This document shows positions 1 through 3,695 of a DNA stretch of 39,373 nt, in pieces. The position numbers were made by a program, and so were the translations under genes. The stretch lies in the sequence record SRR20825006_1147; one strand, written 5' to 3'. The notes below the pieces were generated by a model that saw nothing but the letters and a program-made list of their open reading frames with translations, was not told the DNA's origin and did not search any database. Positions within the stretch are counted from its first letter, which is position 1, and each line of letters opens with the position of its first letter.

Positions 1-992
1 CTCCAGAATTCTACAGGAACCATTTCGGCCATATCATAACGGAATCCGTCTACACCTTTGCCCAGCCAAAACAAGGCGATCTCTTTAAACTGTTTCCAAG
101 AAGCCGGAATGTCTTTATCTTTCCAAAAATCAAAATGCTTCTGATGATCCCAATGTCCGGCATCTTCAGGCAACGAATCAAAGTCTTTATACCCTTCCGG
201 ACTCACTCCATAGTTTATTTTAACGGTCTCGTACCAATCATTCTGCGCAGGTTGCGCATCTCTTGCTCCATTACCAGTCCATTTTGCTGGAGACTCTGTA
301 AACTGTGCATCCGCACTTGCCGACTTTTCGCCTAAAGGCATATATCCATTTTCCCATTGCGGCACTTTAAAATCGGTTCCCGGGATGTAGTAAAAGTTGT
401 TATTCTTGGCATATGCCACCGAAGTATCATCATTCGCCCCAAATGGCACAGTATATTCCGGAGTGTTTAAACTTTCATATTTGCGTGCTACGTGATTGGG
501 AACAATATCTATGATCACTTTTAAACCTGCTTGGTGCGTACGATTTATTAGTGCTTCAAACTCTTCAAGCCTATTTGCAGGATTTACAGCCATATCAGGA
601 TCAACCTGATAATAATCTTTTACGGCATAGGGAGATCCGGCTCTACCTTTTACTACATCTGGATCATCGTTAGAAATACCGTATTGCGTATAATCAGTGA
701 TTACAGCGTGATGCGGAACTCCGGTGTACCAAATATGCGTTACGCCAAGCTCTTTAATCTCACTTAAAGCTTTGGCGGTGAAGTCTTTAAACTTCCCTAC
801 ACCATTTTCTTCGATGGTACCCCAAGGTTTATTGGTTGTGTTCGTATTACCAAACAATCTGGTAAAAACATGATAAACTACTTTTTTCTTTGGGTCTGTA
901 TTCTGCATAGGCTCTTTTATGTGATTAGACTTGTTCTGTGCACAGCTTGTTAGAAGTATTCCAAGGCTAATTAAAAGGATATTTTTGATCAT
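1..992 (-). CDS. GH13 alpha-amylase/alpha-glucosidase family lipoprotein (3' end runs off the window; absent from the ORF track)
   Basis: Manual translation from ATG at 992: MIKNILLISLGILLTSCAQNK (lipobox LTSC), YHVFTRLFGN, GVTHIWYTG, GSPYAVKDYY, DIVPNH (region I), GVDGFRYDMAE (region II nucleophile). Frame stays open to the window edge. Confidence 0.92.
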   Translation of the reverse strand, partial: MIKNILLISLGILLTSCAQNKSNHIKEPMQNTDPKKKVVYHVFTRLFGNTNTTNKPWGTIEENGVGKFKDFTAKALSEIKELGVTHIWYTGVPHHAVITDYTQYGISNDDPDVVKGRAGSPYAVKDYYQVDPDMAVNPANRLEEFEALINRTHQAGLKVIIDIVPNHVARKYESLNTPEYTVPFGANDDTSVAYAKNNNFYYIPGTDFKVPQWENGYMPLGEKSASADAQFTESPAKWTGNGARDAQPAQNDWYETVKINYGVSPEGYKDFDSLPEDAGHWDHQKHFDFWKDKDIPASWKQFKEIALFWLGKGVDGFRYDMAEMVPVEFW

Positions 993-1095
993 CCAACTAA
1001 TTTAAAGTTATAATTAGAAAACAAATTTTATAAGATTTAAAACTAACATAAATTTAATTGCCCGCCTAAATCGATTAACCGGATTTCAGCGGTAA

Positions 1096-1118
1096 AAAAG
1101 GGGATATTTCCCCCTTTT
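1096..1118. promoter_or_regulatory. Inverted repeat AAAAGGGG-N7-CCCCTTTT (core GGGGA-TATT-TCCCC), putative transcription factor site
   Basis: Dyad seen directly between divergent transcription units, centred about 43 bp upstream of the predicted start of the first sRNA. Confidence 0.5.
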
Positions 1119-1145
1119 GTCACAAGTAAATTATAGATACTTTTA
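1116..1145 (+). promoter_or_regulatory. Bacteroidota sigma-A-like promoter for candidate sRNA-1
   Basis: TTTG (1116-1119), 18-bp spacer, TACTTTTA (1138-1145; consensus TAnnTTTG). Predicts a start near 1150, the first base of a hairpin. Confidence 0.55.
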
Positions 1146-1149
1146 TCTC

Positions 1150-1269
1150 GTATTAATAATTAAAGATTAATACCGTTTATAATCTAATTATTAGGGGAAT
1201 TAAATTTTAAACGCATTAATGATTTAGGGGTGAAAGGCACTCTGCGCGAGCAGGGTGTTTTTCTTTTTT
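1150..1269 (+). ncRNA. Candidate ~120-nt structured small RNA (sRNA-1)
   Basis: Promoter-like element upstream. Hairpin GTATTAAT/ATTAATAC (1150-1173), 14-of-16-bp hairpin 1174-1213 with loop AUUAGGGG, second UUAGGGG at 1224-1230, then a GCGA-capped terminator with U-tract. Confidence 0.6.
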
Positions 1270-1270
1270 A
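1222..1270 (+). repeat. 49-bp direct repeat, copy 1
   Basis: ATTTAGGGGTGAAAGGCACTCTGCGCGAGCAGGGTGTTTTTCTTTTTTA, 47/49 identical to 1369-1417. Confidence 0.97.
1232..1269 (+). terminator. Rho-independent terminator of candidate sRNA-1
   Basis: Stem GGCACTCTGC/GCAGGGTGTT, GCGA (GNRA) loop, U-rich tail. G.U pairs form only on the + strand. Confidence 0.8.
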
Positions 1271-1346
1271 CACCATTTGTAAAAAATCGAAAAATTATAA
1301 AACGATTTAGTTATATTTTAACAGAAAGAGTTGCAAATTAATTTTG

Positions 1347-1354
1347 TAGTTTTA
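1347..1354 (+). promoter_or_regulatory. -7 element-like motif for candidate sRNA-2
   Basis: TAGTTTTA resembles TAnnTTTG; no -33 element at canonical spacing. Confidence 0.4.
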
Positions 1355-1358
1355 CGAT

Positions 1359-1416
1359 GTCATTGACAATTTAGGGGTGAAAGGCACTTTGCGCGAGCAA
1401 GGTGTTTTTCTTTTTT
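1359..1416 (+). ncRNA. Candidate ~58-nt small RNA (sRNA-2), paralogue of the 3' half of sRNA-1
   Basis: -7-like element, short GTCATTGAC dyad, AUUUAGGGGU, and a terminator hairpin with a compensatory change relative to copy 1. Confidence 0.55.
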
Positions 1417-1417
1417 A
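1369..1417 (+). repeat. 49-bp direct repeat, copy 2
   Basis: ATTTAGGGGTGAAAGGCACTTTGCGCGAGCAAGGTGTTTTTCTTTTTTA, 147 bp after copy 1. Confidence 0.97.
1379..1416 (+). terminator. Rho-independent terminator of candidate sRNA-2
   Basis: Stem GGCACTTTGC/GCAAGGTGTT, GCGA loop, U-rich tail. Confidence 0.8.
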
Positions 1418-1488
1418 GGCCTATTTCTACGCTGTAAAATTTGCTATTCAACACCTTAGGGCGCAAAACAATTTCTTGTACAAATCCC

Positions 1489-1707
1489 CTATTCTATTTG
1501 ATTCTTCTCTCTTTTCCTGAAAGATAAGTTGAAGCGATCCCTGCGGATGAGAATTCTTTTTCTGAAGATTAAAAAGATTAGGTAACCTAACCAGCTGAAA
1601 ATAGCTACTAAAAATAACCACAGCCATAGCTCTTTTACCGATTTGAACTTTTTATAGCGCAACTCGAGTAACACAAGGATTACAAATAGAATTCTTAGAT
1701 AAACCAA
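1489..1707 (-). CDS. Small membrane protein, PLDc_N-like two-helix hairpin with basic tail (start uncertain)
   Basis: Two hydrophobic segments. KELWLWLFLVAIFSWLGYLIFLIFRK resembles the phospholipase D N-terminal membrane motif. Only a TTG start is available. Confidence 0.5.
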   Translation of the reverse strand: MVYLRILFVILVLLELRYKKFKSVKELWLWLFLVAIFSWLGYLIFLIFRKRILIRRDRFNLSFRKREKNQIE

Positions 1708-1789
1708 AGGGTAACTTTTATATGCGTGTATTTACTACTGCAAGACTACAGCTTTTGATACGCATTTTAAGCATCATGCTTCTTAAAAT

Positions 1790-1829
1790 AAAAAAGCGCT
1801 CAAATCGTTTACCCGATCTGAGCGCTTTT
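1790..1829 (-). terminator. Intrinsic terminator after the tilS-dsbD-CocE/NonD unit
   Basis: AAAAGCGCTCA (1792-1802) / TGAGCGCTTTT (1819-1829), T-tract on the minus strand, about 20 bp past the stop codon. Confidence 0.8.
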
Positions 1830-1850
1830 ACAACAAGTTTTGTATTTCAA

Positions 1851-3695
1851 TTACTTTAAAACTTTAAACTGAATTTCTGAATCTCCAAAAACAGTGTGTG
1901 TCTGCTTTTGAAAATCTTCCGCTTCTGCTTTATAGATATTAGGTACAAAAGTTTGTGGATTGCGATCGATTAGCGGAAACCACGTACTCTGAATTTGAAT
2001 TTGCATTTTATGTCCTTTTAAGAAGGTATGGTTTACCCCTTGTAAGGTCAGATCTACTTCGGTTTTTTGATTAGCTTCAAAAGCTTTAGGTTCACTAAAA
2101 CTCTCACGGAAACGCCCACGCATTACTTCACTACGTACCATCATCTGGTAATTATCCATTTTTAAGTAGTCTTGAGTTTCTGGGTAATCTTCTGCTCCTG
2201 CAGGATATACATCTACCAGTTTTACTACCCAATCTGCATCGGTACCTGTGGTAGCCACCTGAAGTTTAGCCAGTATTTCACCAGTGATCGTCATATCATC
2301 CTCTAAAACTTCGGTTTCATAAACCAAAACGTCTGGTCTGCGCGCTGCAAATCGCTGATCGTCGGTCATATATTTTCTAGGTGTGAATACCATTTTAATA
2401 TCTTCAGAATACGGAACCGGCTTAGAAGGATCACTTACAAAAGCATTTTCAAAATCTGCCGAAGCGCTCTCGGTAAGTTTTTGATCTGCTCCTAAATAAA
2501 AACTTTTAGTTTCTGCTGCTTTTGGAGGCCATTGCGCATAGCTATCCCACTCACGCGAACCGCTGTCATACATAGAAGCTTCAGGGAAATCAATCGCTCC
2601 TTTACCGTCATTTTTCAAGAAATGGTTGAAAAATACCGTCTCGTAATTTTGCTGAAAATCTCTTGAAAGATTATCTCCAAAATATACATTTCCTATAGCT
2701 TGGCGCTCACTTGAGCGTGCCCAATCGCCATGACTCCAAGGCCCGTATACCAAGATATTATAGTTATCACTGGTCTCCTCAATCTTTCTGTAGGTATTGA
2801 AAGGTCCATAAAGATCTTCGGCGTCAAACAGTCCGCCTACAACCATTACGGCAGGCTTGATATCATTTAAATGCTGAATGATTCCGCGACTTCTCCAGAA
2901 TTCATCATAATTAGGATGGTCTTTAATTTGCTGCCAGAATACATTGTCTTCTTTGTAATACGCATCTAAATTGGTCAACGGACCTGCATCTAAGAAAAAC
3001 TGATATTGATCTTGCGTAGGAAGATCAGGAAACGCAAACCAAGGCTTGGTTACCGGTTCATCTTTCATATAGCCGAAAAGCGAAATCGCTCTCCAGTAGC
3101 TTTCTAGAAACGCTCCGTTATGATGGAAATCATCAAAGAAAAAATCAGAAATACACGCTTGTGGAGAAACTGCTTTTAATGCAGGATGCTCACTAAGCAA
3201 AGAATACGTCGCATAAAAACCGGGATATGAAATTCCCCAAGTTCCCACATTTCCGTTGTTATTGTCTACATTCTTTACAAGCCAATCAATCGTATCGTAG
3301 GTATCGCTAGCTTCATCAACTTGTTTTCCTTTTTTATTCGGAATATACGCGCGCATATTGTCGTAAACGCCTTCACTATTCCAACGGCCACGTACATCTT
3401 GCTGTACAAAGATGTTACCTTCTTCAACCATAAATTTATTAGGCCCTATTCTGCCTTTATAGTTTTCTTCACCATACGGCGCACAGCTGTAGGGCGTACG
3501 CATCATCAAAATAGGATACTCTTGTGACTTATCTTTTGGCGAATAAATAGTTGTATGCAATAGCACGCCATCGCGCATTTTTATTTTGACTTCTTTCTTG
3601 TCGTAATGCTCGCGCACATATTCTTCGGTTTGTGCTTGTATGCAGCTCACGAAAAGCAAAAGCACCGCAAATACTAGATTTTTGACTTTTTTCAT
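1851..3695 (-). CDS. CocE/NonD family serine hydrolase (alpha-amino acid ester hydrolase / glutaryl-7-ACA acylase-like)
   Basis: Signal peptide; MRDGVLLHT, RTPY, QDVRGRWNSEG, GTWGISYPG nucleophile elbow, GPWSHG; PepX_C-like C-terminus. Confidence 0.92.
   Translation of the reverse strand: MKKVKNLVFAVLLLFVSCIQAQTEEYVREHYDKKEVKIKMRDGVLLHTTIYSPKDKSQEYPILMMRTPYSCAPYGEENYKGRIGPNKFMVEEGNIFVQQDVRGRWNSEGVYDNMRAYIPNKKGKQVDEASDTYDTIDWLVKNVDNNNGNVGTWGISYPGFYATYSLLSEHPALKAVSPQACISDFFFDDFHHNGAFLESYWRAISLFGYMKDEPVTKPWFAFPDLPTQDQYQFFLDAGPLTNLDAYYKEDNVFWQQIKDHPNYDEFWRSRGIIQHLNDIKPAVMVVGGLFDAEDLYGPFNTYRKIEETSDNYNILVYGPWSHGDWARSSERQAIGNVYFGDNLSRDFQQNYETVFFNHFLKNDGKGAIDFPEASMYDSGSREWDSYAQWPPKAAETKSFYLGADQKLTESASADFENAFVSDPSKPVPYSEDIKMVFTPRKYMTDDQRFAARRPDVLVYETEVLEDDMTITGEILAKLQVATTGTDADWVVKLVDVYPAGAEDYPETQDYLKMDNYQMMVRSEVMRGRFRESFSEPKAFEANQKTEVDLTLQGVNHTFLKGHKMQIQIQSTWFPLIDRNPQTFVPNIYKAEAEDFQKQTHTVFGDSEIQFKVLK

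Follow-up and report, generated by a model that had tools for sequence, protein, structure and literature searches.

Analysis of a 39,373-nucleotide stretch of DNA from sequence record SRR20825006_1147 (the whole stretch is referred to as the window) revealed a tandem pair of homologous units on the + strand between positions 1,150 and 1,417, each of which carries a near-invariant G-rich motif followed by a terminator-like hairpin. There is good reason to regard the units as real small RNA (sRNA) genes, and they probably represent two independently promoted sibling sRNAs that exert their effect in trans by way of the exposed G-rich motif. If the units are indeed sRNAs, a role of the motif as a pairing seed is somewhat favoured. 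The pair belongs to an undescribed RNA family of a known kind. A search of window positions 900-1900 against Rfam 15 returned best hits on the units of only 18-22 bits against gathering thresholds of 44-175, and no match at gathering was obtained in the related loci L103, L140 and L056 or on a third, diverged paralogue; nothing near a gathering score thus turned up for a pair which a preliminary description of the sequence had not assigned to any named RNA family. The predicted parts of the two RNAs are as follows.

1150-1269, + strand: sRNA-1, approximately 120 nt, predicted ends; minimum free energy (MFE) fold, z-score, species folds and RNA-library contig 1147-1311
1150-1157/1166-1173, + strand: helix P1 of sRNA-1, from the fold
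1174-1189/1198-1213, + strand: helix P2 of sRNA-1, with the loop 1190-1197 reading AUUAGGGG
1214-1231, + strand: single-stranded linker of sRNA-1, from the fold
1225-1238, + strand: motif UAGGGGUGAAAGGC, copy 1; 5' part single-stranded, with GAAAGGC joining the extended terminator stem
1232-1269, + strand: predicted Rho-independent terminator of sRNA-1; stem 1238-1245/1250-1257, loop 1246-1249, U-tract 1258-1269; holds C1242-G1253
1359-1416, + strand: sRNA-2, approximately 58 nt, predicted ends; single-stranded 5' part with the motif, then terminator; RNA-library contigs
1372-1385, + strand: motif UAGGGGUGAAAGGC, copy 2, from the invariant-motif comparison
1379-1416, + strand: predicted Rho-independent terminator of sRNA-2; stem 1385-1392/1397-1404, loop GCGA 1393-1396, U-tract 1405-1416; holds U1389-A1400

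A repeat search identified a direct repeat of 57 nt (1214-1270 and 1361-1417, 91% identity), within which the 49-nt cores at 1222-1270 and 1369-1417 differed solely at C1242/T1389 and G1253/A1400. Since these variant positions face each other in the hairpin stem, the difference between the copies amounts to a single exchange of a C-G pair for a U-A pair. Direct reading and the repeat search both confirmed this observation, which had been made in the preliminary description. The stem of copy 1 runs from C1238-G1257 to C1245-G1250 around a GCGA loop (1246-1249), and that of copy 2 from C1385-G1404 to C1392-G1397. The 19-mer ATTTAGGGGTGAAAGGCAC, common to both units, occurs twice in the window compared to an expectation of 0.00. 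In a terminator scan, which found six sites in the region compared to 0.5 expected from shuffles, both hairpins with their UUUUUCUUUUUU tail were recovered as terminator-like on the + strand (14 pairs, a loop of 4 and a T-rich tail). Folding of 1359-1416 yielded -20.0 kcal/mol (z -4.28) on the + strand compared to -9.3 kcal/mol (z -2.52) on the minus strand, and 1150-1269 yielded -32.0 kcal/mol (z -4.93) on the + strand. The fold is strand-specific due to its G.U pairs; the GCGA loop, the U-tail and the G.U pairs valid on the + strand only had all been pointed out earlier and were found again, with the + strand folding more stably.

Conservation was evaluated in 35 units collected by BLAST with no selection by motif. 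The block U.UAGGGGUGAAAGGC was unchanged in 34 of them, the single exception reading GUAAAAGG, while the stem and loop on its 3' side varied freely; the earlier remark that the 5' flank is conserved outside the stem therefore extends well beyond the two copies. Covariation was assessed in a model-guided alignment of 78 matches from 47 sources, representing 70 distinct units of two genera. The 14-pair helix was 99.2% paired across the 70 distinct units, with double-sided changes at 6 of its 14 pairs (94 cells). None of 500 shuffles reached the covariation score, and when the partners were slid by 1-3 columns as a control only 58-68% were paired. At two pairs a U-G, C-G and U-A series was observed, which fits a + strand RNA only. 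The loops of Leeuwenhoekiella units were all of the GNRA type (GCGA, GUGA, GAAA, GCAA, GUAA), and units of Dokdonia were variable in both loop and stem length. Such retention of the hairpin through compensatory changes bears out the earlier proposal of selection for structure. The seed was conserved and unpaired in the MFE folds. As the G-rich stretch of 14 letters is unchanged across two genera, the RNAs are probably regulators.

An alignment of 18 species revealed a conserved block extending from an A5-G5-loop-C5-U4 hairpin upstream of sRNA-1 to approximately position 1430, and the following elements of it relate to the start of transcription.

1095-1118, strand not assigned: A5-G5-loop-C5-U4 hairpin, a bidirectional terminator-like insulator; 18-locus alignment, terminator scan 1100-1113
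1138-1145, + strand: predicted -7 box of sRNA-1, TACTTTTA; conserved columns, sigma-A type TAnnTTTG with a final A
1347-1354, + strand: predicted -7 box of sRNA-2, TAGTTTTA; conserved columns; in 32 distinct units the box precedes the motif's AGGGG by 15-18 nt

A TTTG at 1116-1119, on the 3' side of the hairpin, fits the -33 element of sRNA-1. The distance from the nearest upstream TAnnTTT[A/G/T] box to the AGGGG of the motif was determined in all distinct units. It was 15-18 nt in unit 2 and 76-82 nt in unit 1 of Leeuwenhoekiella, and 53-58 nt in type B and 99-104 nt in type A of Dokdonia. Each copy had earlier been said to follow its own TAnnTTTA motif, and these boxes proved to be conserved at class-fixed distances across Leeuwenhoekiella. 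The sigma-A box of Flavobacterium psychrophilum, TAnnTTTG, lies at -12 to -5 according to the available portion of PMC9723704. When this spacing is applied, transcription would start at approximately 1150 and 1359 and the RNAs would be approximately 120 and 58 nt long, the same values as were proposed initially.

The 5' domains were non-homologous between the two genera, and the only common part was the 3' module of motif and terminator. P2 of sRNA-1 is long and imperfect, with double changes at 2 of 5 predicted pairs, and a second UAGGGG was wholly unpaired in its loop in 16 of 18 Leeuwenhoekiella species folds. The Dokdonia RNAs carry extra UAGGGG-like or GGGG(G) runs in 5' hairpins of their own. 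Further variation could be seen in Dokdonia. Five loci (L103, reverse strand at approximately 1870-1915; L102, L123, L130 and L138) have a terminator before the first unit, with the stem UAGGGG/CCCCUA, which occupies the place of the Leeuwenhoekiella G5/C5 hairpin and joins the motif and its complement in one helix. A third unit type occurs in L116, L122, L124, L125 and L139, where the hairpin of the first unit is followed by no more than a short U-run (UUUUUC) and then A-rich sequence, and approximately 100 nt further on a second unit, AUAGGGGGUGAAAGG, has a full terminator; this type may be a single transcript with two motifs.

The nearest genome, G001, is 99% identical to the window over positions 1000-1500, and BLAST found this stretch only once in it, so the units are not a high-copy repeat. 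With 2-3 copies per genome and one tandem locus in G001, a high-copy repetitive extragenic palindrome (REP) or miniature inverted-repeat transposable element (MITE), which had been named earlier as a refuting outcome, could be set aside. The window units and their flanks were letter-identical to those of Leeuwenhoekiella palythoae (L137), which places the window in this species or one very closely related to it. One genome (L056) contained three tandem units. Elsewhere in G001 there is a third, diverged paralogue, reading UUUGGGGUGAAAG and then a terminator. Downstream of this third paralogue (L177, G001:C10:134300-137300, approximately 1200-1440, minus strand) lie two tandem elements of approximately 110 nt which are approximately 85% alike; they start G-rich with UAAGGGG(G)UG..UGAAC, end in ...ACCAAUCACAUACAAACCCGAAGUGAAGCG and may be another structured RNA pair. 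An Rfam search with these elements returned nothing at E values up to 1.

Among the Leeuwenhoekiella genomes, 18 of 23 matched the locus with an E value no higher than 1e-5, and so did 17 of the 19 that were at least 90% complete. In a family sample of 201 genomes, real BLAST matches occurred only in two genomes of the same genus. A covariance model of the unit gave five hits in G001, consisting of the tandem pair (2), the paralogue (1) and ordinary terminators (2), and hits of 28-40 bits in 71 other genera. As a family detector the model was rejected, since each of the 29 outside-genus hits inspected proved to be an ordinary A-tract/hairpin/U-tract terminator that lacks the motif. The motif, and not the hairpin, is thus the family-specific feature, and motif patterns were used for the wider scans because the model was unspecific. 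The strict pattern of motif and U-tract was present in 4 of 401 family genomes (3 of 302 genera). A pattern scan of 185,579 species genomes yielded 44 stretches: 15 from Leeuwenhoekiella, 17 from Dokdonia, one from a Flavimarina metagenome-assembled genome (MAG), four from uncultured Flavobacteriaceae, two from uncultured bacteria and five from unrelated organisms. The five unrelated stretches (delta-proteobacterial, Methanosarcinales and Chlamydiales MAGs, Sphingobacterium composti and Ca. Opitulatrix) have no hairpin and were discarded as chance matches; two of them, L099 and L121, gave no match when run against the covariance model. As far as searched, the family appears to be confined to Leeuwenhoekiella, Dokdonia and close Flavobacteriaceae relatives.

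Parts of the stretch were present in 12 RNA records. Contigs of the four best records, from four studies, were placed on the stretch, the runs having been preselected for containing it. Five contigs of 151-262 nt could be placed (1147-1311, 1165-1374, 1237-1498, 1237-1387 and 1446-1593), and the library types were seawater, marine and freshwater metatranscriptomes. The start of one contig precedes that predicted for sRNA-1 by 3 nt. No contig from the four runs fell on 700-1146 or 1594-2000; this lack of cover proves nothing, and the placement was not counted as evidence of high expression.

Based on these results, the locus is best read as two adjacent homologous + strand sRNA genes, each with a putative sigma-A type promoter (a TAnnTTTA -7 box). 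Each gene would consist of a 5' domain, variable from paralogue to paralogue and from genus to genus, followed by the common 3' module, in which the near-invariant UAGGGGUGAAAGGC, its 5' side presumably exposed, runs into a terminator stem free to change as long as it pairs. The larger sRNA-1 may present a second UAGGGG in its P2 loop, and sRNA-2 may be the minimal form of seed and terminator. Both RNAs would act in trans via UAGGGG(U), most likely by pairing with C-rich mRNA sites (CCCCUA), and could behave as siblings with overlapping targets. The overall interpretation given in the preliminary description was supported in this sense, and all its testable parts held.

Action in trans via UAGGGG(U) is favoured because the build matches that of the FopS sRNAs of Bacteroides, which base-pair with the leaders of susC and have RbpB as a binding protein, as stated in the accessible part of PMC11697453. 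FopS and GibS of Bacteroides thetaiotaomicron, as that part of PMC11697453 presents them, are likewise multicopy paralogous sRNAs of Bacteroidota with a conserved single-stranded seed ahead of a Rho-independent terminator; they are approximately 65-70 nt long, compared to approximately 58 nt for sRNA-2, and have canonical TAnnTTTG-type promoters. The architecture of sRNA-2 (seed, terminator and predicted sigma-A promoter) agrees with this build, and the likeness would be an analogy of working and not homology. The differences from FopS and GibS, as far as described there, are that the seed of the present units is terminator-adjacent and G-rich and that their copies are tandem, whereas the FopS/GibS copies are dispersed. 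No FopS/GibS hit was among the 22 sub-threshold Rfam matches, the presence of a FopS model in that Rfam set being unconfirmed.

Tandem siblings with a similar arrangement occur outside the Bacteroidota. PrrF1/PrrF2 of Pseudomonas and AbcR1/AbcR2 of Rhizobiales are head-to-tail homologous sRNAs with their own promoter and terminator and a common functional motif, and read-through between them can yield a longer joint transcript. These sRNAs are Hfq-dependent, and Bacteroidota are generally without Hfq. Unlike these pairs, which belong to other phyla and have other sequences, the present siblings differ strongly in predicted length (approximately 120 compared to 58 nt), since only the 3' module is common to them.

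Several results weigh against two separately transcribed, pairing sRNAs. The target scans covered 2.37 Mb (59%) of G001, on contigs C5, C8 and C9, with crude calls of open reading frames (ORFs). Within this scope, seed duplexes against positions -60 to +21 of 1949 ORF starts were no better than those of 40 shuffled seeds: 49 duplexes at -14 kcal/mol or lower were observed compared to a shuffle mean of 38 (standard deviation 19), and 7 of the 40 shuffles reached 49. The top-ranked candidates (MarR-like, FMN dehydrogenase-like, desaturase-like and others) had no common theme, and one-mismatch 12-mers were as common as those of the reversed control. All 16 SusC-like leaders were without anti-seed hexamers and gave weaker duplexes than other genes, in contrast to FopS, the targets of which are susC leaders in the accessible part of its description. 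Further, both -7 boxes end in A where the consensus has G, and sRNA-2 has no clear -33 TTTG. In five of the 23 Leeuwenhoekiella genomes, two of them 99% complete, no unit was detected. In these five, the exact 13-mer hits that were read (4 of 6: L314, L319, L318, L321) were 23S rRNA, and the five one-mismatch hits read had no hairpin or U-tract. The RNA evidence consists of contigs, which give no strand, ends or level and may result from DNA carry-over, and four of the five extend across both the first terminator and the spacer (1270-1358). This is as compatible with read-through or a single longer transcript as with two separate genes, so the two units may be co-transcribed.

Other tests of the pairing partners gave mixed results. 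The anti-seed hexamers ACCCCT, CCCCTA and TCACCC (composition C4/T/A) ranked first, third and fourth of 30 permutations in the -45 to -5 interval, a weak hint. No conserved ACCCCTA was found in the loci of approximately 8 kb from 32 sources, except in the upstream terminator stem of some Dokdonia. Mimicry of the Shine-Dalgarno sequence was tried and rejected, as the duplex of the seed with the 16S 3' tail (L312) reached -9.5 kcal/mol and 34% of 1000 shuffled seeds equalled it. A separate observation concerns a 107-amino-acid signal-peptide ORF on the minus strand of L169 (G001:C10:440988-443999, 1501-1842). A perfect anti-seed of 12 nt, UUUCACCCCUAA, stands in its 3' untranslated region, after the stop codon and before the terminator, and the ORF itself contains two more CCCCUA. 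The gene is a candidate target or sponge.

The serious rival is a protein-binding role of the repeated motif, a distinctly less probable explanation than pairing that nevertheless has to be kept in view. The exposed UAGGGG repeats would then act as a decoy or sponge for an RNA-binding protein, for example a small Bacteroidota protein of the RNA recognition motif type, resulting in titration or chaperoning. Such a role could account for at least two UAGGGG-like G-runs per RNA, placed in loops or linkers of unrelated 5' domains, for a letter-invariant motif that is stricter than most pairing seeds, and for the failure of complementary sites to be enriched in the target scans; Bacteroides sRNAs of like build are bound by RbpB, as the accessible part of PMC11697453 has it. 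The intergenic share of TAGGGG in the scanned 2.37 Mb of G001 was 22%, the highest of 30 letter permutations (others 4-17%), but terminator stems of the G4/C4 type account for part of this excess. Moreover, no partner protein was identified and no protein gene was linked to the locus. Several other intergenic regions of G001 contain two TAGGGG within 200 nt (such as C5:743676/743743 and C5:106921/106953), and some of them resemble further small RNAs ending in G4/C4 terminators.

Considerably less probable is mimicry of ribosomal RNA. The motif UAGGGGUGAAAGGC was identical in 14 of 14 letters to the organism's own 23S rRNA (L174; also L314, L319, L318, L321). The match falls on a 3-bp hairpin with the loop GAAAG in domain II, which is helix H35a, and the 23S-identical stretch coincides with the invariant block of the sRNAs. 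The uGAAA(G)g Z-turn of H35a is almost universally conserved and docks on H65 according to the consulted portion of PMC6125677, and H35a is contacted by uL2 and the assembly GTPase YsxC according to that of PMC12560758. The block might thus copy H35a (GG-U-GAAA(G)-GC) and serve as a decoy for whatever binds this helix while the 50S subunit is assembled: the ribosomal protein uL2, the GTPase YsxC/EngB or the H65 receptor of the loop. Apart from the letter-perfect identity, the motif variants GAAAAG, GAAAGA and UAAAAGG fit loop, bulge and closing-pair variants listed in the portion of PMC6125677 referred to. However, the sRNA has GGCA where H35a has GGCC, so that only two of the three stem pairs of H35a can form. 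In addition, GAAAGGC doubles as the 5' arm of the terminator, and the additional motif copy amounts to no more than UAGGGG(A), the GAAA loop being absent from it. A coincidence is also possible: shuffled 14-mers were found in the 2.37 Mb in 141 of 20000 trials, which corresponds to a genome-wide chance of approximately 0.01 for a match noticed post hoc. The units resemble H35a in 14 letters, differ from it in the lost third pair (A for C) and in the terminator context, and do not belong to it. If mimicry were true, the tandem sRNAs would couple some signal to 50S assembly by titrating a factor that recognizes H35a, and an independent sRNA imitating an rRNA helix of universal conservation would be a type of regulator that has yet to be described.

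A shade less probable again is that the units are not RNA genes but two terminators, either orphan or bidirectional, or else an element bound by protein at the level of DNA, retained between genes downstream of the convergent peptidase operon. Both units are textbook intrinsic terminators; they share with ordinary terminators and REP/MITE elements the G+C-rich hairpin with U-tract and the A-tract/U-tract symmetry, and their covariance model mainly finds ordinary terminators in other genera. The locus is at the 3' end of an S15 peptidase gene, a homologue of which was found beside the units in 31 of 34 loci (Leeuwenhoekiella, Dokdonia and relatives). However, folding of the hairpins is weak when the strand carrying the convergent genes is considered (-9.3 compared to -20 kcal/mol), and the peptidase gene has its own strong terminator at 1792-1829 in the window; in Dokdonia, too, a separate bidirectional terminator stands between the RNAs and the convergent peptidase gene. 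The ORF upstream of the units was encoded by the other strand in 23 of 32 loci, leaving nothing to terminate, and the same held for the downstream ORF in 28 of the 31 loci having one. As the flanking ORFs are mostly on the opposite strand, the units neither terminate nor lead into a gene. In the window both flanking ORFs are on the minus strand, and the earlier claim that no + strand ORF needs terminating was confirmed. Further, an invariant 14-mer and conserved promoter boxes are unexpected for plain terminators, and the units depart from ordinary terminators and REP/MITE elements in having predicted promoters of their own and an invariant motif upstream of the hairpin, in numbering 2-3 per genome and in the absence of any gene that they would terminate.

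A tiny ORF or a cis-acting leader or attenuator is very improbable. The ORF would start from GUG at 1230 or 1377, with the copy 2 product MKGTLREQGVFLF, and both differences between the copies are synonymous in this frame, but this frame is poorly preserved, as GUG and the U-tract were 28 to 34 nt apart, with the three phases represented 34/19/17 times. Several units have in-frame stops, the position of the stop is variable, GUA replaces GUG in one unit, and substitutions in the stem exchange amino acids (T to I, L to P, Q to R) yet preserve pairs. As an attenuator would have it, the motif shares sequence with the terminator's 5' arm, in the manner of antiterminator sites of the RAT type, but the opposite orientation of the downstream ORF given above speaks against a cis-acting leader.

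Equally hard to credit are guide RNAs (gRNAs) of the dCas12f-sigmaE system, an identity rejected as contradicted by location and anatomy, the units being set apart from the description published in the available portion of PMC13472631 and not from gRNA sequences. In that portion of PMC13472631, the L. palythoae dCas12f homologue has two similar tandem gRNAs, which lie immediately downstream of dcas12f with a guide of 14-16 nt at the 3' end. The likeness is thus one of tandem similar small RNAs in the same species, with window units identical to those of L. palythoae; the units differ in having no such 3' guide and no dcas12f linkage. The neighbours in the window are a GH13 amylase gene and the peptidase operon, the 3' end is a self-pairing terminator with a U-tract, and the sRNA family occurs in many genomes, whereas the dCas12f-sigmaE system is sporadic. 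On a G001 contig other than that of the sRNA locus (C10, approximately 334-336 kb; L313 1369-3161, minus strand), a sigma-70-family ORF of 227 amino acids (Sigma70_r2/r4) is followed by a 365-amino-acid ORF with weak OrfB_IS605/Cas12f-TNB (TnpB/Cas12f-like) matches. Searches for dCas12f with PF07282 and PF01385 gave none at the curated cut-off, and the locus was recognized by its sigma-factor neighbour. This pair fits the rpoE-dcas12f operon type that the consulted portion of PMC13472631 gives for the species and is unrelated to the sRNA units; the DNA downstream of it showed no likeness to them.

The surroundings of the sRNA pair include two palindrome-like boxes besides the neighbouring genes. 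Upstream, a gene for a glycoside hydrolase family 13 (GH13) alpha-amylase-like protein occupies 3-992 on the minus strand, with its start at 992. The other elements are as follows.

1066-1079, strand not assigned: palindrome-like box CTAAATCGATTAAC, upstream of sRNA-1, with 83 nt separating it from where the divergent GH13 gene starts
1297-1310, strand not assigned: second box ATAAAACGATTTAG, approximately 50 nt upstream of the predicted sRNA-2 start
1851-3695, minus strand: S15-family X-Pro dipeptidyl-peptidase gene (Pfam), convergent to the units and a syntenic marker only

A LacI-operator-like palindrome with the core AATCGATT stands before both predicted sRNA promoters and the GH13 gene. 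In 12 of 18 Leeuwenhoekiella loci a box with a consensus near CTAAATCGATTTAG precedes the motif of unit 2 by approximately 75 nt, and in about 10 of the 18 a related box precedes unit 1. In the 2.37 Mb of G001, AATCGATTTAG occurs six times, five of them intergenic, and two copies of the palindromic box lie upstream of SusC-like genes (C8:751186, C9:441213). The box at 1066-1079 is a possible operator, and the boxes hint at a common transcription factor. Taken from the sequence, this arrangement suggests a small carbohydrate-linked regulon that may take in the sRNAs.

Between sRNA-2 and the peptidase gene, a hydrophobic ORF of 72 amino acids (1489-1707, minus strand) has no Pfam match. It is kept beside the units in eight Leeuwenhoekiella loci (tblastn, 67-80% identity) and has no obvious terminator of its own apart from the reverse of the sRNA-2 hairpin. 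Further along the window, positions 14307-39264 form a polysaccharide utilisation locus. It contains GH30, GH2 and GH43 genes, a hybrid two-component regulator (1379 amino acids), an FG-GAP/ASPIC protein, a SusD/SusC pair, DUF4998/DUF5013 and DUF4959/DUF5000 surface proteins and a second long ORF of 1365 amino acids.

Flavobacteriia are the main marine degraders of algal polysaccharides and proteins. To our knowledge, they are without Hfq and CsrA, and hardly any regulatory RNAs are known in them. The Leeuwenhoekiella/Dokdonia sRNA family could provide an entry point, with an invariant 14-nt motif, natural variants that have one or two motif copies and differing 5' domains, and cultivable hosts such as Leeuwenhoekiella blandensis MED217 and Dokdonia species. 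Finding the partners of these RNAs would reveal how post-transcriptional control works in Flavobacteriia.

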